Part shown: one piece after another, positions 52,752 to 63,042 of the stretch
Layout of the letters: every line of letters begins with the position of its first letter
How positions within the stretch are numbered: the first letter of the stretch is position 1
Assembly: GCA_022561385.1 (NCBI GenBank)
Contig: JADFRG010000007.1
Span: 14,498 to 78,497, forward strand
Source of the DNA: Chloroflexota bacterium
Lineage (GTDB): Bacteria; Chloroflexota; Anaerolineae; Anaerolineales; E44-bin32
Direction: 5' to 3'
Length of the DNA: 64,000 bases
The notes under the pieces: generated by a model
Databases searched by the model: none
Seen by the model: the letters and a program-made list of their open reading frames with translations, nothing else
Told to the model about the DNA's origin: nothing
Position numbers and translations under genes: made by a program

Positions 52752-53120
52752 ATGAAACGACCGGTCCACTTTGAGATTCTGTCCGACGACCCCGAAAAGC
52801 TGGCGGGCTTTTACGGGACCGTGTTCGGATGGGAGATCGCGACCATGGGTGGGGGTGAACAGTCTTATTGGCTGGCGACCACTGGCCCCGACGGAGAGCC
52901 CGGGATCAACGGGGGTTTCATGAACCGCGAGTTTGACCAGGCGGTGATCAACACTGTAGAGGTAGATTCACTTGAAGCCGCCACTGCCGAGATCGAAGCC
53001 GCGGGGGGCAAGCTGGTGCACGGGCCGAACGAGGTTCCTGGGGTTGGGACCCACGCCTACTTCGCCGATCCCCAAGGAATTATCTTTGGCGTAATGCAGC
53101 CCGTGACTCAAGATGATTAG
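52752..53120 (+). CDS. VOC (glyoxalase/bleomycin-resistance/dioxygenase) family protein
   Basis: 122 aa with VHFEI...FYGTVFGWEI...GTHAYFADPQGIIFGV. RBS GGGAGG. Confidence 0.8.
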   Translation: MKRPVHFEILSDDPEKLAGFYGTVFGWEIATMGGGEQSYWLATTGPDGEPGINGGFMNREFDQAVINTVEVDSLEAATAEIEAAGGKLVHGPNEVPGVGTHAYFADPQGIIFGVMQPVTQDD

Positions 53121-53412: not shown

Positions 53413-53742
53413 ATGATCGCAATTCGCTCGATCAGCCTTTTTGTCGTGGCGGCGCTAGCCGAAATTTCTGGCGCTTACTTGATCTGGCAGTGGATCCGTG
53501 CCGGCAAGCCAGCCTTTTGGGGCCTGGTAGGTCTCATCGCCCTGTCGGTATACGCCGTGACACAGACTTTCCAGGAATTCAACTTCGGGCGGACTTTTGC
53601 CGCGTACGGCGGGATCTTTATTGCAACGGCACTGCTGTGGGGGTGGCTGGTAGAACGTCGAACGCCAGACCGCTGGGACTTCCTCGGGGTGAGCATTTGT
53701 CTATTAGGTGCTGCCATCATCCTCTGGGGCCCTCGCCGGTGA
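53413..53742 (+). CDS. ynfA: YnfA/UPF0060 family small membrane protein
   Basis: 109 aa, 4 TM, with the AEISGAYLIWQWIR and AYGGIFI motifs of the family. Confidence 0.8.
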   Translation: MIAIRSISLFVVAALAEISGAYLIWQWIRAGKPAFWGLVGLIALSVYAVTQTFQEFNFGRTFAAYGGIFIATALLWGWLVERRTPDRWDFLGVSICLLGAAIILWGPRR

Positions 53743-53867: not shown

Positions 53868-54305
53868 CTAAGCTCTGATAGCCGGGAGTAGTTCGTCTTC
53901 GATTCTTTGTTTTAGTTCGTCCCGAGCCGCGCGGAAGGCGCCTAATTTTTCGGCCTCGGACCCCACGACAGTTGAAGGATCCCTGATCGACCAGTGCCAA
54001 CGATGTTGGGCATATGGAAAGACGGGGCAGGACTCGTTGGCCTGATCGCAAACAGTAACTACATAATCAACGCGATCGTTTACAAATCCGTCCAAACTCT
54101 TCGAGACTTGATGATGGATGTCCACCCCAACCTCATCCATTGCGGCAATTGCTTCCGCGCGAACCTCACTCGCAACCGTCCCTGCGGACTGCACATAAAC
54201 GCCATCTCCGGCCAGATCTTTGAGTAGACCCTCGGCCATCTGAGACCTGGCGCTATTGTGTGTGCAAACGAAAAGCACCGTAGTTTTCGCGGACGATCTG
54301 CCCAA
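53868..54305 (-). CDS. arsC: Arsenate reductase, LMW-PTPase (thioredoxin-coupled) type
   Basis: VLFVCTHNSARSQMAEG (CX5R P-loop) plus downstream Cys residues (VTVCDQANESCP). Confidence 0.85.
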   Translation of the reverse strand: MGRSSAKTTVLFVCTHNSARSQMAEGLLKDLAGDGVYVQSAGTVASEVRAEAIAAMDEVGVDIHHQVSKSLDGFVNDRVDYVVTVCDQANESCPVFPYAQHRWHWSIRDPSTVVGSEAEKLGAFRAARDELKQRIEDELLPAIRA

Positions 54306-54551: not shown

Positions 54552-55649
54552 TCAATTCATACGGGTCGCGGCAATGTGTTGGGCTACGTACTGAGCATCG
54601 CGACCCACGCCGTAGAGGTCTTGAGAGGTAGCGGTGTATTGGTGCCTCATGCCAACGAAATACAGCCCAGGAGCAGCGGGCACCTGTCCGCGCTCGTGAA
54701 TCGGTTGCCCGGCCATATCGAATGTATCGTGTCTATTTAGTGGCTGGATGAAGTCGTATCGTGCTTGGAATCCGGTGCACCAAATTACGCTCAGAGACTC
54801 GAGCGGCACTGTTTCGCCGTCAGAGCAGAAAATACCGGCCGGGTTGAGCCCGCTCACCTTCCCGACAAGATTAACTCCATAGGTCTCTGCCAATTGACTG
54901 GGAGAGGGCGGCATCGTCCGGCCGCCTATGTCCGCCCGAAGTAGCTTTTTCCCCAGCCACGAATTCGGTTTGAGGTCCATGAGCCGAAACCACCTCATAA
55001 TTGTGTAAATTGGGATGCCTAGGACTTCAAAAGGAACGGTCAAGTTCCCGCTGACCGAGAGCGTGAGTTTGTCGAATCTCCCAGACCTGGCCAGGTCCTC
55101 ACATATCTGGACCCCACTGTTTCCACTGCCCACGATCAATACGTGCCCTTCCTCGATTTGGTCAGGATTTCGGTACTCGCGCGAATGAAGCTGGGGGATT
55201 GTTGATGGCAGCTCAGCGGCAACGAGAGGGAACTTGGGATTTCGAAAGGCGCCGGTGCAGATCACGACGTAGTCAGTTTCGTAGGTGAAATCTGGTGTCG
55301 CCACGCACCAGGTGTCGTGCTGAGTCTGTCTGACTGAAGTGGCCTCGGTGTGCTCACGTATCAAGGGATTGACCGCGGCAAGGTATGATTCGAAATATCG
55401 TAGGGCATCCGCTTTCATTCCCAACGCATCCCTGCTCGCTCCGGCCGCAAACTCCTCGGGGGAGCCGGGGAGCGAGTTCATCCAGTTGGCCGTGTTCATG
55501 TGGAACGAATCCCACCGACCGTACCATTCCGAGAATGCGCGGTCTTTCTCCAGGACCACGCTTTTAATTTGGCTTTGCTGTAGGAAGTAACTCGTAGCGA
55601 TGCCTGCCTGGCCACCTCCGACGATCACAGCCTCGACCGACCCTTCCAC
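54552..55649 (-). CDS. FAD/NAD(P)-dependent flavin monooxygenase-like oxidoreductase (ArsO-like by context)
   Basis: N-terminal VIVGGGQAGIA dinucleotide motif and a second GSGNSGVQI motif. It sits upstream of arsC on the same strand. Confidence 0.7.
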   Translation of the reverse strand: MEGSVEAVIVGGGQAGIATSYFLQQSQIKSVVLEKDRAFSEWYGRWDSFHMNTANWMNSLPGSPEEFAAGASRDALGMKADALRYFESYLAAVNPLIREHTEATSVRQTQHDTWCVATPDFTYETDYVVICTGAFRNPKFPLVAAELPSTIPQLHSREYRNPDQIEEGHVLIVGSGNSGVQICEDLARSGRFDKLTLSVSGNLTVPFEVLGIPIYTIMRWFRLMDLKPNSWLGKKLLRADIGGRTMPPSPSQLAETYGVNLVGKVSGLNPAGIFCSDGETVPLESLSVIWCTGFQARYDFIQPLNRHDTFDMAGQPIHERGQVPAAPGLYFVGMRHQYTATSQDLYGVGRDAQYVAQHIAATRMN

Positions 55650-56072
55650 AACCCTCGAACCCGCCGTCCTACGATTTTCCTAACCGCTGAATAAAGAGGA
55701 TAAACGCTCCGTATCGACTCGCCGCCACATATTATGCGGCAAAGTCTGCCCATTTAAGGTTACGAGCATTCCTTTCCACTCCACTGAGCTCTATCGACAA
55801 TCTACCAGGAACTTTAATTCGCAGGACTCGTGCGAGTGCCTGGGTCCGCGAATTTAGCTCATCACTAAAAATAGAAATCCAGGTGGTTCATATAGGTAGA
55901 CGAGATCAAATTTGCGATCATATCTTTCCGCGCTCGGATTCTGATCCATCCATCTCGGGGGTTGAGATTTGGTACCCGAACTTCCTCCCTCTCGGACCTG
56001 TATGGGACGCCGACTCCACCAGTGATTTCACGCAGCTGGGAACAGCTAACCGGGATGTACAGCCAGATTCCC

Positions 56073-56101
56073 TTGACAGACAGATGGGCCTACCCTATTA
56101 T
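56073..56101 (+). promoter_or_regulatory. Near-consensus sigma-70-type promoter for the mer cluster (TTGACA-17 nt-TATTAT)
   Basis: TTGACA at 56073-56078, a 17-nt spacer, and TATTAT at 56096-56101, about 70 nt upstream of merA ATG 56174. Confidence 0.55.
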
Positions 56102-56117
56102 ACCCATAGGGGGTATA
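56099..56117. promoter_or_regulatory. Inverted repeat TATACCC-N5-GGGTATA, a candidate CsoR-family operator overlapping the -10 element
   Basis: Perfect 7-bp arms. G/C-tract-centred TACCC...GGGTA repeats resemble CsoR operators as I recall them from Bacillus copZA. A CsoR-family gene lies in the same cluster. Confidence 0.5.
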
Positions 56118-56173
56118 GGGATGTAAGAAGATCGGAAGTCCCTGCATCCAAAAACATGGAAGTTGAGGAGAAT

Positions 56174-57838
56174 ATGGCAGGACAAGAGAAAATAAGTTTC
56201 GACATCCGAGGGATGACCTGTCCCTCGTGCGAGGTGCACGTTGCGAACGCAATAAAAAGCGTCGAGGGCGTGTTATCGGTCGAGATTCCCGGATGGGAAT
56301 CCTCAGAGGCGGAGGTGGTCGCCGAGCAAGGGATCGATGCCAAATCGTTTGCAGAGGCGGTTCTACAGGCAGGCTATGGAGCCAGCGTTAGGGCGCGGCA
56401 ACCAGTAGATGGAAAGACAAGCTCTAATGGAAAAGGCGATGGCCGGTTCGACCTGATGGTGATCGGAGGGGGCTCAGCCGGCTTCGCGGCCGCCATCAAA
56501 GGCGCCGAACTGGGTTTCAAAGTGGGCCTGGTGGAGGCGGGTGAGATCGGAGGCACCTGTGTGAACGTGGGGTGCATCCCGTCCAAGACCCTCATCCGGT
56601 CGGTGGAGCTGTATCACCAGGCCGGGCAAGAGAGATTCAAGGGGATCAGCACCTCCCAGGGACCGATCGACTGGCCCCAGGTTATAGATCACAAGGATGA
56701 GCTCGTACGCGATCTTCGGAAGGCGAAGTACTCGGACGTGCTGAAGGCTTATCCCGAGATCACCTATATCCAGGGTACAGCAACGCTGCGTGGGGGCAAT
56801 GAGCTGGAGATCGACGGCGAGGCGTATGCACCGGGAAAAATAATTATTGCCGCCGGCGCAAGCCCGTGGGCGCCTCCGATCCCCGGGCTCGCCGAATCTG
56901 GATACCTGGATAGCACGGCCGCCTTAGATCTCAGAGAGATCCCCGAATCGCTGATCGTGCTCGGTGCGAACGCGGTGGGCCTGGAGATCGCGCAGATCTA
57001 CGCTAGGGCAGGAACCAACGTCACGGTTTTAGAAGTGCTGCCTCGAATTGCGCCGTTTGAAGACGAGGAAATCAGTGCCGCCCTGACTGGATACTTGGAG
57101 AACGAAGGCTTACAAATTGTGACCGGATTTCAGACCGCCTCCGTGGAGAAAGCGGAAGGACGCTACACGTTGCGTGGGACCCAGGATGAGGCCGACTTGA
57201 CTTTCGAAGCTGAGCAGCTGCTGGTGGCCACGGGGCGACGCCCAAATACGACCGGTCTCGGTTTGGAAGAGGCGGGAGTCAAGCTCGGTAAGCGTGGGGA
57301 AATCGTTGTCGATGAGCACCTCGCGACCGACAATCCGGAGGTTTACGCGGTTGGCGATATCCTCGGGCGGGATATGTTTGTTTATGTTGCAGCTTACGAC
57401 GGAATCCTGGCGGCCGAGAATGCGCTAAGCCAGGCCGGCCGAGTCTACGACGCCGATTACATCGCCCGCATAACGTTCACGGACCCGCAGATCGCCTCCG
57501 CAGGGCTGACCGAGGCACAGGCCCGAGAGCGGGGCTATGAAGTTAAGGTCAGCACGCTCGAGATGAAACACGTCCCGCGTGCCCTGGCGGCGCGCGACAC
57601 CCGTGGACTTATCAAGCTGGTGGCGGACGCCTCCACAGATCGCCTGCTCGGGGCGCACATTCTCGCGCCGGAAGCAGGAGAGATGATTCAGACCGCAGTA
57701 ATGGCCATCAAGTTCGGCATAACGGTGAGTGAGATGAGGAGCATGATGTTTCCTTATCTCACCAACGCGGAAGGCCTGAAACTAGCGGTGTTGGCCTTCG
57801 ATAAAGACGTCGCCATGCTGAGCTGCTGCGCGGGGTGA
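56174..57838 (+). CDS. merA: Mercuric reductase MerA with an N-terminal HMA (NmerA) domain
   Basis: RBS GAGGAG 4 nt upstream of ATG 56174. GMTCPSC HMA motif, GGTCVNVGCIPSK redox disulfide, YVAAYDG, FPYLT (Tyr instead of His), and the C-terminal LSCCAG pair. Confidence 0.9.
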   Translation: MAGQEKISFDIRGMTCPSCEVHVANAIKSVEGVLSVEIPGWESSEAEVVAEQGIDAKSFAEAVLQAGYGASVRARQPVDGKTSSNGKGDGRFDLMVIGGGSAGFAAAIKGAELGFKVGLVEAGEIGGTCVNVGCIPSKTLIRSVELYHQAGQERFKGISTSQGPIDWPQVIDHKDELVRDLRKAKYSDVLKAYPEITYIQGTATLRGGNELEIDGEAYAPGKIIIAAGASPWAPPIPGLAESGYLDSTAALDLREIPESLIVLGANAVGLEIAQIYARAGTNVTVLEVLPRIAPFEDEEISAALTGYLENEGLQIVTGFQTASVEKAEGRYTLRGTQDEADLTFEAEQLLVATGRRPNTTGLGLEEAGVKLGKRGEIVVDEHLATDNPEVYAVGDILGRDMFVYVAAYDGILAAENALSQAGRVYDADYIARITFTDPQIASAGLTEAQARERGYEVKVSTLEMKHVPRALAARDTRGLIKLVADASTDRLLGAHILAPEAGEMIQTAVMAIKFGITVSEMRSMMFPYLTNAEGLKLAVLAFDKDVAMLSCCAG

Positions 57839-57943
57839 GACGGAAAAACCCAGGGTTCGTCGGCTGAAGCAGGAGTTGCTCGATTGGTGATAGTCCCCTT
57901 ATTGCCCCCATCCGCCGAAGTCTTTCGGATAGGAGAGAACAAA

Positions 57944-58210
57944 TTGTCGTCAACTAAATCGAACGCGGTACCGATTACATTCAAAGTAATGGGAATGAGC
58001 TGCATTGACTGCACGCCGTTGATTACAGACTATCTGAGCGCCCAGCCGGGGGTACTGGAAGCAGCGGCCGACTATGAAGGCGGGAAGGTTATGGTGACCT
58101 ATCAACCGGAGCGTACTTCGCCCGAGGACCTGGCGCGGGCCATAATCGCCTCAGGCACATCCACCGACTGGAAGCACGAATTTAACCCGATCCTGGAGCC
58201 CGCATCCTGA
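57944..58210 (+). CDS. Heavy-metal-associated (HMA) domain metallochaperone-like protein
   Basis: GMSCIDC motif in a ferredoxin-like roughly 70-aa domain. TTG 57944 is preceded by GGAGAG. The track start at 57884 is also possible. Confidence 0.7.
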   Translation: MSSTKSNAVPITFKVMGMSCIDCTPLITDYLSAQPGVLEAAADYEGGKVMVTYQPERTSPEDLARAIIASGTSTDWKHEFNPILEPAS

Positions 58211-58235
58211 TCCGCGGTTCCTCCACGAAGAGAAT

Positions 58236-59156
58236 TTGCCTGGCGGCCGTCCGGATCCTCAGCGTATTCGCCGCGTGACGTCTACTGCCGGTGATACTTC
58301 TACGCGAAAAGGAACTACGCATCGACCGATCCAAAATGGAGGGACAAGGACCTCGATAAGACCAATCCTGTCCGCCTTGGTACTCGTATTGGTGGCAACG
58401 GCGTGCAGCTCGCGCTTCCTGCCCGTCGGCGACGTCCCTGAACCAGCAGCTCAGCTCAGGGCGCAGCCTGAAGTGGAAGACCAGGCGTTGGAGGTTTCCC
58501 CGGCTGAAAGTGGTTTCTCCGGAAGCCCCAGCTCGACTCCGGACGAGATTGTTCTCAGTCCGACTCCGGTTCCGGTCGCGCCCCAGCCTGTTCCGGATTT
58601 TGTCGGACAGGAAGTGGAGGAACCCGCGGATCCCGCAGTCCTGGCCGAGATCGGGGTGTTTGCCGAGATGCGCGACAACCTGGCCAGCGGGGACCTGGCG
58701 CCGGACTTCGAAGTGCGTGCGATCGGAAACTGGACCTTCAGCCTCTCTGCCCAGCGCGGCTCCTATGTGCTCGTGGTACCGACCGCCATTGGATGCGGAG
58801 AGTGCGTCTTCACCATGAATCAGTTGGCCGCGGCCTACCCGGATTACCGTGACAAGAATTTGCAGCTGGTGCTTATAAACATGTATCCGGAGGATGAGCC
58901 TAAGTCCTGGGACGCCTATGTGGAGGCCTACCCTGATTTAGGTGCCGTATGGGGAGTGGTCTCATCGGTCAATTTTGTTGTGGACTATGACATCCGGTCG
59001 CTGGGGACGATCCTGCTGGTCGATCCGGAAGGTAAGCTGGTCTTCCGAAGCGACTTCCCACTGATCGAAGAGGAACTCCGTCAGCTCTTCGACCTGGCCA
59101 CGAGTGGAAAGTCTGAGGTCTCGGAGATCTCAAGTCCGATGCCGGTGATTATCTAA
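58236..59156 (+). CDS. TlpA/ResA-like thioredoxin-fold lipoprotein (Cys form, C-G-E-C)
   Basis: TM/lipobox LVLVATAC, a long acidic/Pro-rich linker, then SYVLVVPTAIGCGECVF and a cis-Pro-region-like GTILLVDPEGK. The start codon is uncertain. Confidence 0.7.
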   Translation: MPGGRPDPQRIRRVTSTAGDTSTRKGTTHRPIQNGGTRTSIRPILSALVLVLVATACSSRFLPVGDVPEPAAQLRAQPEVEDQALEVSPAESGFSGSPSSTPDEIVLSPTPVPVAPQPVPDFVGQEVEEPADPAVLAEIGVFAEMRDNLASGDLAPDFEVRAIGNWTFSLSAQRGSYVLVVPTAIGCGECVFTMNQLAAAYPDYRDKNLQLVLINMYPEDEPKSWDAYVEAYPDLGAVWGVVSSVNFVVDYDIRSLGTILLVDPEGKLVFRSDFPLIEEELRQLFDLATSGKSEVSEISSPMPVII

Positions 59157-59157
59157 T

Positions 59158-59988
59158 ATGACCTCTGAAGACACTCAAGCCGTCGAGCCGAGACCTACCC
59201 CTTCTGGCTGGCTATACCCCGTCGTGGGGCTGCTGGCGTTTGCGGCGATCGGCGTGGGCTCATGGATCTTCCGCTCAGGAAATCTGGCGGCGCTTCCTCT
59301 GGCCTGGGCCTTCTCGGCCGGCATGCTGGCTACGGTCAACCCCTGTGGGTGGGCCATGCTGCCTTCCTATGGAGCCTACTATCTCGGCTCGCGCGAGGCA
59401 GGTTACGAGCAGCGGCCGTTAATTCTCCGCGGCGCGGAAGGATTCCGTCTAGGGCTGCTGATGACGGCTGGCTTTCTGGCTGTATTCAGCGTGGTGGGGG
59501 CGATCATCTCGCTCGGCCTACGCGTGCTGATCCAGGCCATGCCCTTTCTTGCCATCCTGGTCGGCGCTGGATTGGTAGGTCTCGGACTGTGGCTGCTTTT
59601 CGGAGGCTCGCTGCGACTTTCCATCCCAACTCCAAAAATCCAGGCGCAGGCGCGCAATCCGAAATCAGTATTCTTGTATGGAATGGCCTACGGATTCGCC
59701 TCACTTAGCTGCACCCTGCCAATCTTTATGGTCGTGATTGGCAGCAGTCTGGCAACCGGCACGCCGGGCGAGGCGGCGGTTATGTTTGGCAGTTTCGGAG
59801 CTGGAATGGCGCTGGTCCTGATGGCGGTGGTCATCAGCATCGCGCTCGTGAAAGGAGCCATCGTCGAACAAGTACAGGCCGTGCTCCCGTACGTGCACCG
59901 GTTTGGCGCAGCACTGCTTGTGTTTGCGGGCGCCTACCTGATCTGGTATCAAGCCCGTTACTTGCCATTTTTCCTTTCCACGTTCTGA
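59158..59988 (+). CDS. ccdA: CcdA/DsbD-family transmembrane thiol-disulfide electron transporter
   Basis: Polytopic, with two membrane-embedded Cys motifs: VNPCGWAMLP and SLSCTLPIF. Confidence 0.8.
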   Translation: MTSEDTQAVEPRPTPSGWLYPVVGLLAFAAIGVGSWIFRSGNLAALPLAWAFSAGMLATVNPCGWAMLPSYGAYYLGSREAGYEQRPLILRGAEGFRLGLLMTAGFLAVFSVVGAIISLGLRVLIQAMPFLAILVGAGLVGLGLWLLFGGSLRLSIPTPKIQAQARNPKSVFLYGMAYGFASLSCTLPIFMVVIGSSLATGTPGEAAVMFGSFGAGMALVLMAVVISIALVKGAIVEQVQAVLPYVHRFGAALLVFAGAYLIWYQARYLPFFLSTF

Positions 59989-60007
59989 TAAGGCCCTATC
60001 TACGTCG

Positions 60008-60580
60008 ATGCCTGGCACTAAAAGCAAACCTAACTTACGGCCACAACGCTGGAGGCAAGCCGCACGTCGACGAGGCGTGTTGTGGGCTGTGGTGGGCGGG
60101 CTGGGTTTATTCGTGGCCTGGCAGGTGATTTCCAACCCATTGCCGACCACCAAAGCACAGTCCCTGGCCGGTCTGGCTCCGGACATTACGCTGACGACCC
60201 AACAGGGGGAATACCGCCTATCCGAGCAGAAGGGGGAGACGGTCGCGCTCTTCTTCGCGTTTGTAGGTTGACCGAGCTGCGCGCGGGAGGTTCCCGCGCT
60301 CAATCGAATTCGAGCGGAATTCGGCGTTCAGGTGGTAGCGATCAATCTCTTGCCGCAATACAACAGTCTCGAGGAGTGGCAAGCTTTTCTTGGGGAATTT
60401 GGCGCGACCGATTTCGTATGGGCCGCGGACACCTATGACCAGCTTGCTTCGCGGACTTATAACGTTCGGTCATTGGGCACCACGATCATCATAGACCGCG
60501 AGGGGCAGATGGTTTATCGGGACGAGGTGGCCAGCACGTATGAGATGTTAAAGCCGGCCGTGTTGACCGCTCTGGACTAG
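60008..60580 (+). CDS. TlpA/ResA-like membrane-anchored thioredoxin-fold protein, predicted selenoprotein (G-U-P-S-C; TGA 60269-60271 read as Sec)
   Basis: ORFs 60008-60271 and 60332-60580 share one frame with TGA as the only stop between them. The joined sequence reads ...GETVALFFAFVG-U-PSCAREVPALNRIRAEFG...GTTIIIDREGQ, which matches the FWAxWCxPCxxExP redoxin context. Confidence 0.7.
60281..60299 (+). promoter_or_regulatory. Candidate bacterial SECIS hairpin for UGA 60269
   Basis: GCGCGGG(A)-GGT-(T)CCCGCGC, a 7-8 bp GC stem with a GGU-containing loop about 17 nt after the UGA. Confidence 0.5.
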
Positions 60581-60600
60581 GGGATTGGAAGGAAGTTAAG

Positions 60601-60879
60601 ATGGAGAATTCCTGGATATCGATCAAAGGTTATGTGATGGGTGCCTTGGCCTTCATCTCCTGCCCCTGTCACCTGCCGATTACCCTGCCACTGCTTGTGG
60701 TTGTTACAGCCGGCACCGCCTTCAGCGCCTGGCTGCAAAACAACTTGTTCGCCGTCGGCGGCGCGTCGACGGTGTTTTTCGTCGGCTCCTTGGTGCTGGC
60801 AATCAGATGGAGCGGCAGGCGGGCTCGCGTCCGCCATCGTGTAGAATCGACGATGCGACCACAGAAGCTCATCAAGTAA
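60601..60879 (+). CDS. merE: MerE-like small mercury transporter
   Basis: Two TM helices. GALAFISCPCHLPITLPLL closely resembles the MerE LTCPCHLPIL motif, recalled from Tn21 MerE. Confidence 0.65.
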   Translation: MENSWISIKGYVMGALAFISCPCHLPITLPLLVVVTAGTAFSAWLQNNLFAVGGASTVFFVGSLVLAIRWSGRRARVRHRVESTMRPQKLIK

Positions 60880-60892
60880 GGGAGGTAGAAAA

Positions 60893-61198
60893 ATGTCTGT
60901 CGCCACAGCGCCACCGCTTACAACCTATCTCGATCCAGAACTGATTGGAAACCTGCAAAATCGACTCAATCGCATCGAGGGATCTGTTCGCGGCGTCAAC
61001 CGCATGCTGGAAGACCATGAAAACTGCGACGATATCGTCGTGCAGCTATCGGCGATCAAAGCTGCCGTGAATCAGGTCACGATTAAGCTGTTGGAAGGAC
61101 ACATGAACACCTGCCTGCTTGAGTGCGCGGCCACGGGCGACCTGGAAGCGCTTGAACATTTCAGGCGCTCCATGGCGCTTGTGATGAAGAACTCGTGA
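60893..61198 (+). CDS. CsoR/RcnR/FrmR-family metal-sensing transcriptional repressor (C-H-C fingerprint)
   Basis: 101 aa with L.NRLNRIEGSVRGV.RM (DUF156 signature). The ligand positions are ENC...H-x3-C (GHMNTC). Confidence 0.85.
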   Translation: MSVATAPPLTTYLDPELIGNLQNRLNRIEGSVRGVNRMLEDHENCDDIVVQLSAIKAAVNQVTIKLLEGHMNTCLLECAATGDLEALEHFRRSMALVMKNS

Positions 61199-61310: not shown

Positions 61311-61511
61311 GTGACGAAGACGGATGAATGTCCCTATTGCACGGAAATGCTCGCGCCGGATCTGCTGCACATCTGCCCCGTAGGATGCTGCTACGTTGAG
61401 GGGTATGAGGGCAAAGAAAAGGTCAAATGCTCATACTGTGAACTGCCGTTCGAAATCTTGGCAGGACACGCCTGTTTCGAGCTCATCGCGCTGACCGAAC
61501 CTGCGCAGTAG
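61311..61511 (+). CDS. Small Cys-rich protein (9 Cys in 66 aa; CxxC...CxxxCC...CxxC...C), function unknown
   Basis: GTG start. The ORF is followed by a strong terminator. The zinc-ribbon-like Cys spacing reads CPYC...CPVGCC...CSYC...C. Confidence 0.45.
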   Translation: MTKTDECPYCTEMLAPDLLHICPVGCCYVEGYEGKEKVKCSYCELPFEILAGHACFELIALTEPAQ

Positions 61512-61592: not shown

Positions 61593-61665
61593 ACGACTGC
61601 GCGGGGGCGAGTTTGAATCCTGCCCCTAGACGCCACCGGCACTCCGACCTATTTGGAGGATCCAG

Positions 61666-63042
61666 ATGAGCGATGCATACGATGTCGCGGTAATCGGCGC
61701 GGGACAAGGCGGTCTGCCGGCCGCACACATGGCGGCCAATTTGGGCGCCAAAGTCCTTCTCGTAGAGGATCGGGAGGTGGGCGGAACTTGAGTGAATGAG
61801 GGGTGCATCCCCACTAAGACCTTGTTAAGGTCTGCCGAAGTTATGCACTTGGTACGAGATCGATCGGCCGAGTTTGGCGTGCGCGGAATCGATCCCAAGA
61901 GTGTCTCGTTCGATCTGGCAGCCGCGGTGGCCCGAAAGGATAACATCGTGGCCGGGATCCAGGCCGGGATCTACAAAAACCTGGATCGAAACAAGAACAT
62001 CACCTTTATGAAGGGCCATGCGGAATTCACCTCACCGGTCGACATTCGGATCGACGGCACGCTGGTGACGGCCGAAAATAGCGTCCTGGCGGTTGGCTCC
62101 CAGCCTGCGCCGTACGCCATTCCCGGCCTAAAAGAGGCTGGATTCATCACAAATTACGAAGCGCTCAAGCTGGAAGAGCTCCCCAACTCCATGATTGTTA
62201 TCGGGGGCGGATACGAGGGAGTGGAGTTTGCCCAGATGTACGCTCGCTACGGTACGGCGGTCACAATGCTCGGACGTGCGCCACGCGTGATGCCTAAGGA
62301 GGAGCCCGAACTCTCTGAGAAGCTGGGCGACATACTCCGGGAGGAAGGCGTGGATCTCCACACTTCGACCGAAGTGGTTCGAGCGGGCGCGGAGAACGGC
62401 GCGCGTTTCGTTTTGGTGCGAGAGGCGGGGTCTGAGCGACGTTACGAAGCGGAGGTCTTGCTGCTGGCGGTTGGCCGCAACGCCCGAGTCGAGAATCTGG
62501 GTTTGTCAGAGGCGGGGGTGGAGATGGATGGGCCCTATGTGGGTGCAGACCGGCGCTTGCGAACGTCGGCAAGCAACATCTGGTCGCTCGGCGACGCCAA
62601 TGGCGGGCTTATGTTTACCCACCGAGCCACCTACGACGGCCCCATTGCAGCGCTCAACATCGTGAAAGCCCTGGGCCGGGAGGTGGATTACCGAGTGGTG
62701 CCGAGGGCAGTCTTTACGGAGCCTACCCTGGCGAGCGTCGGCCTGACCGAGGCCGAGGCGAGGGCTCAAGGCCATGAAGTGAGGGTAGGAACCGCGGATT
62801 TTGCCGGATCAGGTCGGGCGAAGGCCATCGGCCTGCCGGTCGGGATGGTTAAGCTGATTGCAGACGACGGCACGGGGGAGCTGCTAGGTGGCCACATCCT
62901 TGGACCCCGGGCCGACGATCTAATCCACGAAGTGGTTACCGCCATGTACAAGAAAGGTTCAGCAGAAGCGATCGCCAAATCCATACACGTGCATCCGACC
63001 CTGAGCGAGGTCGTGAAGCGGGCCGCGAAAGCACTGCGATGA
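61666..63042 (+). CDS. Class I pyridine-nucleotide disulfide oxidoreductase (Lpd/GR-like), predicted selenoprotein with Sec in the redox-active pair (GGT-U-VNEG-C-IPTK; TGA 61789-61791)
   Basis: ATG 61666 lies 5 nt after GGAGGA. Its N terminus is MSDAYDVAVIGAGQGG...LVEDREVGGT, then TGA, then in the same frame VNEGCIPTKTLL... (ORF 61792-63042). The C terminus has the HVHPTLSE His-Glu dyad and no MerA-type CC tail. Confidence 0.7.
61817..61833 (+). promoter_or_regulatory. Candidate bacterial SECIS hairpin for UGA 61789 (alternative: 61791-61815)
   Basis: AGACCTT-GTT-AAGGTCT (7 bp stem, GUU loop) lies about 33 nt after the UGA. A second possible structure, AGUG/CACU plus GGG-UGCAU-CCC, starts directly after the UGA. 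Confidence 0.4.

Follow-up and report, generated by a model that had tools for sequence, protein, structure and literature searches.

The stretch analysed here (the window, 64,000 nt of contig JADFRG010000007.1 from the Chloroflexota assembly GCA_022561385.1) carries, on the forward strand at 61666-63042, a gene for a flavoprotein disulfide reductase whose frame of 458 sense codons has a single internal interruption, TGA at 61789-61791. A preliminary description, made from the sequence alone, had read this codon as selenocysteine (Sec). A mechanical listing of open reading frames (ORFs) cuts the gene into pieces of 41 and 416 aa. The features of the gene are the following:

61655-61660, forward strand: ribosome-binding site GGAGGA, 5 nt before ATG 61666, read from the sequence
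61666-63042, forward strand: proposed full selenoprotein coding sequence, 458 residues with Sec42, stop TGA 63040-63042
61690-61713, forward strand: FAD-binding motif VIGAGQGG (GxGxxG), ahead of the TGA and in frame in all orthologs
61789-61791, forward strand: UGA, read as Sec42, at the first (interchange) Cys position of GGT-C-xNxG-C; TGA in 20/20 family sequences
61804-61806, forward strand: Cys47 codon TGC, flavin-proximal charge-transfer Cys and partner of Sec42, placed by motif alignment
62992-63009, forward strand: His443...Glu448 (H-P-T-L-S-E), acid-base dyad of disulfide reductases, present in all Sec members

Direct reading confirmed the start signal given in the preliminary description, and translation gave, as claimed there, VIGAGQGG, EVGGT, TGA and 416 further codons in one frame. 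The N terminus ahead of EVGGT and the TGA reads MSDAYDVAVIGAGQGG, and the frame continues after the TGA with VNEGCIPTKTLL up to the stop at 63040-63042. The comparison with the merA of the same window also held: ORF 55883-57838 reads IGGTCVNVGCIPSK, and the TGA is aligned exactly with the first Cys of the GGTCxNxGC redox motif. As for Cys47, its charge-transfer role is presumably the one known from the established enzymology of glutathione reductase (GR), dihydrolipoyl dehydrogenase (Lpd) and mercuric reductase (MerA). When Cys was substituted for the TGA, Pfam returned Pyr_redox_2 (4e-59, residues 5-325), Pyr_redox (1e-21) and Pyr_redox_dim (3e-34); all features of a class I pyridine nucleotide-disulfide oxidoreductase are present, with U replacing the first C. 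Since the Pyr_redox_2 match begins at residue 5, the 41 codons before the TGA belong to the FAD domain, where the preliminary description had placed them, and not to a leader peptide; judged from this match, they encode the first beta-alpha-beta unit of that domain.

Homologs were sought among 5.8 billion proteins and the best 120 matches (60-98% identity) were examined. N-truncated gene calls of 376-425 aa, lacking the N-terminal 40-80 residues, made up 119/120 of them, with starts either at the codon following the TGA (416 aa) or 18 codons later, at a Met (399 aa). The sole full-length entry among the best 120 (P0038, 457 aa, 58% identity) comes from locus L101/L102. The DNA of relatives was drawn from species-representative genomes, metagenomes and assemblies, with loci numbered L001 to L109; the source metagenome-assembled genomes (MAGs) include GCA_022568065.1, whose locus is 98% identical, GCA_008501685.1, GCA_040959955.1, GCA_022560655.1 and GCA_975249725.1. 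TGA, and never TAA or TAG, occupied the identical codon in 20/20 distinct relatives of about 40-98% identity, which belong to Chloroflexota/Anaerolineae, Marinimicrobia and other MAGs; such regularity goes well beyond chance. All members of the main clade (~60% to 98% identity) carry it, as do four further lineages of about 40-47% identity (L106, L107, L108 and L109), and a fifth divergent lineage (P0124, 42% identity) displays the same split on its contig at the level of gene calls only.

The close ortholog in L101 (58% identity) has TGT at the Sec42 codon and forms a Sec/Cys pair with the window gene. The count of this codon proposed in the preliminary description gave 20 TGA against 36 TGC and 14 TGT, the latter two making up 50 distinct Cys homologs; the distant Cys homologs (38% identity or less) are Lpd-, GR- or MerA-like with TGC or TGT. 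The ortholog frames are intact, 454-464 codons long, with one in-frame TGA each and no other lesion in any copy, and the part ahead of the TGA (VIGAGQGGLPAAH...REVGGT) is unbroken in all main-clade relatives. Decayed or frameshifted relatives, which the preliminary description had regarded as telling against Sec, did not appear. Among the 36 Pfam-supported ORFs of the window, TGA ends 14, that of the reductase included, and TAA and TAG together end 22; UGA is therefore an ordinary stop in this host.

Selection was compared in 15 Sec-type genes. In the 38 codons upstream of the TGA, synonymous divergence (pS) was 0.69 and nonsynonymous divergence (pN) 0.11 (pN/pS 0.158), and from such saturated synonymous sites combined with a conserved protein it follows that this region is translated in frame. 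The remainder of the gene had a pS of 0.71 and a pN/pS of 0.30. Over codons +1 to +19 past the TGA, pS dropped to 0.37 as against 0.71 elsewhere downstream, i.e. synonymous change was about halved. Codons +9 to +16 (AAG ACC TTG TTA AGG TCT GCC GAA) are almost frozen and include Leu and Arg codons that are rare, the G+C content of the window being 58%, and at the Thr codon immediately upstream of them all four third bases occur.

Directly 3' of the UGA lies a two-hairpin element resembling a selenocysteine insertion sequence (SECIS):

61800-61812, forward strand: hairpin 1, GGGG-UGCAU-CCCC, 4 pairs in 18/20 Sec as against 6/50 Cys sequences
61817-61833, forward strand: hairpin 2, AGACCUU-GUU-AAGGUCU, 7-bp stem, loop GUU at 61824-61826

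Hairpin 2, whose apical loop lies 32 nt downstream of the UGA, is the probable SelB-binding element; we speculate that hairpin 1 compacts the long spacer between UGA and loop. Standard pairs account for 93-97% of both hairpins (93% on 19 aligned sequences) and for 35-63% when the partners are slid, and compensatory changes were found at 3 pairs of the element. In hairpin 1, three sequences (L005, L106, L108) have C-G at pair 15:21, where 15 others have G-C. As for hairpin 2, it reads GACGCU-GUU-AGCGUC in L095, where compensation came at the price of an Arg-to-Ala change, GGCCCU-GGUC-AGGGUC in L107, AAGACCUU-GGU-AAGGUCUU in L108 and AGGCCUU-GUU-AAGGUCU in L109. Of the 20 Sec sequences, 19 form it with 6 bp or more, and each of these 19 has a G(G/U) loop; a hairpin of this kind occurred in 0/50 Cys homologs, 5/50 of which reach 6 bp with GAU loops. 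In the Cys ortholog of L101 the same KTLLRS peptide is kept, and its codons ACC TTA TTG CGT TCA abolish hairpin 2. The consensus for bacterial SECIS elements comprises a loop N-G-[G/U]-N, a spacing of 16-37 nt and an energy threshold of -7.5 kcal/mol (PMC13188914), and the loops GUU, GGU and GGUC of hairpin 2, together with its stem size and spacing, fit it. A longer outer helix, in which GGGGUGCAU pairs with AUGCAC(C/U)U in several minimum free energy folds, was rejected, as it is lost in L006, L095 and L104.

A second in-frame TGA lies about 1.5 kb upstream of the reductase gene, within the following gene:

60008-60580, forward strand: putative second selenoprotein gene, membrane-anchored TlpA/ResA-like thioredoxin-fold protein with FVG-U-PSC; TGA 60269-60271

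It consists of two ORFs (60008-60271 and 60332-60580) which share one frame, are parted by the TGA and are called as two small ORFs by gene callers. The joined product reads ...ALFFAFVG-U-PSC... and matches Redoxin/AhpC-TSA. Its SECIS, GCGCGGGA-GGU-UCCCGCGC at 60281-60299, has a perfect 8-bp stem (-14.7 kcal/mol) and lies 17 nt after the UGA. Both TGA and hairpin are kept in L001, L003, L051, L058, L060, L103 and L105, and Cys versions (WCGxC) occur in L006, L095 and L101. TlpA/Redoxin-type UxxC selenoproteins (cd02966, PF08534) are a known kind, to which this neighbour belongs and the reductase does not; with its canonical SECIS, the neighbour is therefore an independent sign of Sec use in the operon. 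When long frames across the window were crudely scanned for TGA with a G(G/U)-loop hairpin, the hits were the two operon genes plus four frames of non-coding appearance. An in-frame TGA with coding frame on both sides was found in these two genes only within the 64 kb, in both at the catalytic redox-motif Cys. Sec-type formate dehydrogenases (FdhA) have been reported for marine Chloroflexi (PMC5736913).

The conserved TGA, the Cys ortholog, purifying selection on the N-terminal part, the covarying SECIS-like structure and the second selenoprotein gene support what the preliminary description had proposed: TGA 61789-61791 very probably is a conserved Sec codon at the position of the substrate-attacking Cys. 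This reading is strengthened because the SECIS-like structure is absent from Cys homologs and TGA serves as an ordinary stop elsewhere. Several observations weigh against it: i) hairpin 2 alone reaches -6.6 kcal/mol, which is weaker than the -7.5 threshold, and only both hairpins together (-15.0 kcal/mol) surpass it, while the 32-nt spacing is close to the upper limit of the consensus; ii) RNA folding, which the preliminary description had suggested, was unremarkable for the single sequence (61780-61860, 81 nt, no better than shuffles, z -0.68), and it was comparative analysis alone that revealed the element; iii) a permissive Rfam search of 61600-61950 returned no SECIS family and one chance tRNA-like match (E 3.5); iv) no counterpart of hairpin 2 was found in L106, despite its TGA and hairpin 1 being kept, and covariation, given the strong conservation of the element, is limited to a few lineages; v) neither the 64-kb window nor the fetched loci yielded selA, selB, selC or selD, ARAGORN reporting no tRNA-Sec for the window and 15 loci and Pfam detecting no SelA, SelB or SelD in about 45 long window ORFs, which encode housekeeping and metal(loid)-resistance functions instead; and vi) as regards function, the physiological substrate is inferred wholly from gene neighbourhood and active-site residues.

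Lpd, the E3 component, was the best match to the reductase among solved structures (1dxl, 3ii4 and 2a8x, E 1e-81 to 1e-80, with 1dxl at 1e-81). The Lpd model TIGR01350 also gave the best NCBIfam score, a marginal pass with Cys in place of Sec (422.4 bits, cut-off 408.8). The two enzymes have in common the fold, the position of CxxxxC and the HxHPTxSE dyad, and differ in that Lpd has an interchange Cys where the reductase has Sec. Moreover, the NAD-type Glu of Lpd (VTVVEF) is replaced by Gly-Arg in the main clade (VT(M/L)LGRAPR; VTMLGRAPR in the window), whereas L108 and L109, unlike the main clade, do have the Lpd-type Glu in the NAD fold. Given the known determinants of GR and MerA, the Gly-Arg signature suggests that the main-clade Sec reductase uses NADPH. 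Genes for E1, E2 or GcvH were present in none of the reductase neighbourhoods, which contain mer and metal genes instead.

MerA (TIGR02053; PDB 5x1y, 4ywo, 1zk7) shares with the reductase the fold, the redox motif GGT-C/U-VNxGC and the operons in which both occur. Its structure 5x1y ranked just behind Lpd (E 7e-74), and an IPGL.E.G(F/Y)xT(N/S) segment is common to MerA and the Sec family. The TIGR02053 score of the reductase (369.6 bits) is under the cut-off of 454.45, whereas the true MerA of the window scores 551. The C-terminal Cys pair and the NmerA/HMA domain of MerA are absent from the window reductase, which ends in ...VVKRAAKALR. The co-resident MerAs have FPYLT, with Tyr for the catalytic His, and SCCAG, whereas the reductase keeps HVHPTLSE; no Sec family member deviates from the His-Glu dyad (xHPTLSE). 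In a crude neighbour-joining tree, the Sec lineages and their Cys relatives adjoined MerA, apart from bona fide Lpd, so that the Sec family and MerA are apparent sister groups. Sec lineages were interspersed with Cys lineages, which would point to several switches between Sec and Cys, the tree being too weak for a count.

An assignment as true Lpd/E3 was rejected on account of the missing NAD-type Glu in the main clade, the metal-gene context and the placement on the MerA side of the tree. An assignment as true MerA was likewise rejected, given the score under the cut-off, the missing C-terminal Cys pair and the retained His-Glu. By these sequence features, the protein is a MerA-related enzyme of disulfide reductase type, neither E3 nor MerA. 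The preliminary description had called it Lpd/GR-like from HVHPTLSE; this stands as far as the dyad residues are concerned, but the tree and the IPGL..G(Y/F)xT segment side with MerA, and the Lpd Glu is absent from the main clade. The divergent Sec member of L109 (908-2305 of a GCA_040961615.1 contig, 41% identity) combines the TGA, the two hairpins and the His-Glu dyad with a terminal Cys pair of MerA type (...GRLSCC); it is possibly a hybrid between disulfide reductase and MerA. Its gene adjoins HMA and zf_CopZ genes.

Two other groups of Sec flavoproteins call for comparison. Animal high-Mr thioredoxin reductase (TrxR) and its relative TGR are class I flavoprotein disulfide reductases in which Sec, located in a C-terminal GCUG, attacks the substrate; this C-terminal redox centre receives its electrons from the N-terminal CVNVGC pair of the partner subunit, and the SECIS lies in the 3'-UTR. 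The reductase differs from TrxR in having Sec inside the flavin-coupled pair itself and a bacterial, in-frame SECIS; its score with TIGR01438 is 146.8 bits (cut-off 475.85), and a C-terminal GC(U/C)G extension is absent. As for the selenoproteins of the CoADR/NADH-oxidase type (UGxP) and the type III sulfide:quinone reductases, Sec replaces the flavin-side catalytic Cys in them as it does here. The CoADR/Nox-type Sec flavoproteins belong to another subfamily, in which one Cys/Sec is the only redox residue and both the CxxxxC pair and the His-Glu dyad of the dimer interface are missing. The CoA-disulfide reductase model NF007123 (PRK09564) gave the reductase only 57.9 bits (cut-off 458), and TIGR03385 (CoADR/Nox-type) was not among its 25 best NCBIfam families.

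The gene lies in a mercury-resistance gene cluster, in which the following were recognized in addition to the second selenoprotein gene:

55883-57838, forward strand: canonical merA (HMA domain, GGTCVNVGCIPSK, FPYLT, C-terminal SCCAG; TIGR02053 551 bits)
57884-58210, forward strand: HMA metal-binding protein (Pfam/sequence)
58236-59156, forward strand: Cys-type TlpA-like redoxin (Pfam/sequence)
59158-59988, forward strand: CcdA/DsbD-like membrane protein; homologs in L095 and L101 carry DsbD_TM
60601-60879, forward strand: MerE-like transporter (Pfam MerE)
60893-61198, forward strand: CsoR/RcnR-type metal-sensing repressor (Pfam Trns_repr_metal)
61311-61511, forward strand: small Cys-rich ORF, CPYC..HICPxxCC..CxYC..GHxC..LTEPAQ, upstream neighbour of the reductase gene
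54552-55649, reverse strand: ArsO-like flavin monooxygenase, adjoining the mer cluster
53868-54305, reverse strand: low-molecular-weight phosphatase/ArsC-like ORF, adjoining the mer cluster
53413-53742: UPF0060 membrane protein, adjoining the mer cluster
52752-53120: glyoxalase-fold protein, adjoining the mer cluster

The gene order in the window is MerA, HMA, TlpA-like (Cys), CcdA/DsbD-like, TlpA-like (Sec), MerE-like, CsoR/RcnR repressor, Cys-rich ORF, Sec reductase and DUF3105, and the same order was found in the 98% identical MAG locus L103; MerE-like followed by CsoR/RcnR recurs in L001, L003, L103 and L105. Translation of merA probably starts some 290 nt after 55883; its counterpart in L103 is a gene call of 555 aa. 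The window operon (55883-61198, forward strand) is a non-canonical one: MerR was not seen in the window, a CsoR/RcnR-type repressor being present instead, and a CcdA/DsbD-like protein and two TlpA-like redoxins occur where MerT and MerP are expected. Operons of L095, L098 and L105 do carry MerR and MerB. Since gyrB, lysS, greA, sigma-70, yidC and tatC are encoded elsewhere in the window, the metal(loid)-resistance island is chromosomal.

In every locus with enough flank, whether from Chloroflexota, Marinimicrobia or other MAGs, the reductase gene sits among metal genes. L095 has MerR, MerA, HMA, Redoxin, DsbD_TM, MerE/Trx3 and the reductase, followed by MerB with overlapping stop and start; L094 (Marinimicrobia), where a canonical MerA is missing from 17.6 kb of sequence, has MerR, then MerB, then the reductase; L098 and L105 are similarly organised. 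Divergent Sec lineages adjoin MerR, HMA, zf_CopZ or ArsR-type genes. The most constant neighbour is the small Cys-rich ORF, which reads CPYC..HICPVGCC..CSYC..GHAC..LTEPAQ in the window and has homologs of 66-80 aa. A homolog precedes the reductase in 14/21 loci, and in 11/21, near-identical loci included, it is the immediate neighbour, 320-480 nt ahead of the TGA. No Pfam or NCBIfam family matched this ORF, and the protein database holds only 8 unnamed clusters. Its product may be a partner or substrate of the reductase, or an Hg-binding module acting in trans.

Other small proteins are encoded directly upstream of the reductase in L106 (1916-2182, a GDCCVxC domain (seleno)protein, NF041374) and, next to the Cys-type enzyme, in L101 (2141-2488, a DF family (seleno)protein, NF049942). 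The neighbourhoods suggest that the reductase is recurrently paired with small Cys/Sec-rich proteins. A MerE-like membrane segment with a CPC motif is fused to a thioredoxin_3-like domain in L095 (9363-9872), L105 (6373-6876) and L101 (1644-2141), and this fusion is often found just upstream of the reductase. The canonical MerAs of the window, L098, L105 and L005 have Glu at the strand end of the NAD(P)H fold (VTVLEV), where GR-type NADPH enzymes have Arg (VVHRS); by this residue they may prefer NADH, unlike the Sec reductase with its NADPH-type appearance.

From the above, we propose with high confidence that 61666-63042 encodes one 458-residue class I FAD/NAD(P)H disulfide reductase with Sec42, with the decoding, chemistry, mer context and role as outlined here. 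The two-hairpin element directly 3' of the UGA would recruit SelB and Sec-tRNA. By analogy with GR, Lpd and TrxR, NAD(P)H would reduce FAD in a homodimer-type enzyme, and FADH- would in turn reduce, via the flavin-proximal Cys47, a Sec42-Cys47 selenenylsulfide representing the oxidised state. The Sec42 selenolate would then attack the substrate, with His443'/Glu448' as acid-base pair. In the cell, the enzyme would keep the Cys/Sec-rich metal-handling proteins of the operon, or the thiol pool, reduced under mercury stress. With moderate confidence we regard it as a dedicated NAD(P)H-dependent disulfide/selenenylsulfide reductase of these proteins or of the thiol pool, because it has kept the dyad, because MerA usually occurs in the same locus, and because genes for Cys/Sec-rich proteins and a CcdA-TlpA relay constantly accompany its own. 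The reductase itself probably does not reduce Hg(II).

The best surviving alternative assigns the mercury chemistry to the reductase. It would be a Se-dependent mercuric reductase, or an acceptor of Hg(II) or organomercury, working in parallel to MerA or instead of it and holding Hg between Sec42 and Cys47, where the metal would be bound and then reduced, or taken over from MerB. Binding of Hg(II) by selenolates is extremely tight, which speaks for such a function, and so do several genomic observations: the enzyme takes the place of MerA in the minimal operons of L094 and L106, in the latter following MerR and the GDCCVxC (seleno)protein, and has a gene overlapped or abutted by MerB in L095, L097, L094, L004, L053 and L055. 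Its position beside MerA in the tree and by the IPGL..G(Y/F)xT motif, and the MerA-like LSCC end of L109, point the same way. On the other hand, the His-Glu dyad of thiol-disulfide type is invariant where MerA has Tyr, most relatives lack the C-terminal Cys pair as the window protein does, and the TIGR02053 score stays below its cut-off. Moreover, most loci with enough flank harbour a canonical MerA as well (the window, L003, L005, L006, L007, L053, L095, L098, L103, L105), and a Se-Hg bond would presumably be harder to reduce and release. Altogether, we consider this alternative unlikely. A broader version is equally doubtful, namely that these operons encode a Se-dependent branch of mercury resistance, with an extracytoplasmic Sec TlpA-like protein and a cytoplasmic Sec flavoprotein for selenol-based capture, transfer and possibly reduction of Hg, or for processing of the MerB product. 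If it were true, the reductase would be a second, unrecognised type of mercury-processing flavoenzyme with a Se-Hg-S intermediate beside FAD, and the small Cys-rich protein would help in trans in the manner of the C-terminal Cys pair of MerA.

Far less probable is a true stop at the TGA, which would leave either a conserved split gene (a 41-aa FAD-loop peptide and a 416-aa restart) or a decaying pseudogene without the interchange Cys. Gene callers do split the gene there everywhere, a possible restart codon comes right behind the TGA (GTG in the window, as TGAGTG; ATG in L107 and L108, as TGAATG), and no sel genes were found in the window or the fetched loci. A mere stop would hardly remain TGA in all 20 distinct sequences though TAA and TAG end 22/36 window ORFs, nor coincide exactly with a catalytic Cys codon that is TGT in a close ortholog. 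Purifying selection on both sides, with no other lesion in any copy, argues against decay; the covarying hairpin pair, beginning 8 nt past the restart codon, would hinder and not help re-initiation; and the same operon has a second UGA gene with a canonical SECIS. Least probable of all is that a variant code or a suppressor tRNA makes UGA specify one of the standard amino acids Trp, Cys or Gly, as is known from some uncultured bacterial lineages, for TGA is the commonest stop of the window (14/36, the reductase's own included), the same TGA recurs in the unrelated phyla Chloroflexota and Marinimicrobia, the structured G(G/U)-loop element is specific to UGA-bearing genes, and only two genes in 64 kb contain an in-frame TGA, both at the catalytic Cys.

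Returning to the Sec-containing disulfide reductase, the preliminary description had called the placement of Sec unusual, and the searchable literature agrees. In a 2026 inventory of 119 prokaryotic selenoprotein families, flavoprotein oxidoreductases are represented by the CoADR/NADH-oxidase type (UGxP) and type III sulfide:quinone reductase only, without a GR/Lpd/MerA-type UxxxxC enzyme (PMC13188914). A Sec enzyme of this type was also absent from a 2022 review, the deep-Sep paper and an organometallic-selenoprotein preprint, and a full-text literature search, whose scope left out most subscription-journal papers, gave no earlier mention. The 25 best NCBIfam (June 2026) matches to the reductase comprise no selenoprotein model, while a dedicated one would rank first. 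Database entries for the reductase and its relatives are all N-truncated and named "NAD(P)/FAD-dependent oxidoreductase" or "dihydrolipoamide dehydrogenase"; the gene calls and functional inferences for the source MAGs are therefore wrong. Very probably, then, the reductase represents a selenoprotein family missing from the checked catalogues and from database annotation.

The prokaryotic selenoproteome would thereby gain a family that is numerous in metagenomes and comprises more than 100 database clusters at 90% identity. Its two-hairpin SECIS, whose apical loop comes late (32 nt after the UGA), would be a useful training case for selenoprotein gene finders. Among class I flavoprotein disulfide reductases it would, within the literature found, be the first to carry Sec in the flavin-coupled pair. 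A natural selenenylsulfide beside FAD, together with a natural Cys ortholog, would allow a clean test of the benefit of Sec in thiol-disulfide interchange, free of the additional C-terminal centre of animal TrxR. Finally, two selenoproteins are a surprise in mercury-resistance operons, given that selenols rank among the foremost targets of Hg(II), and the long-discussed antagonism of Hg and Se would become directly testable in a bacterial genetic system.

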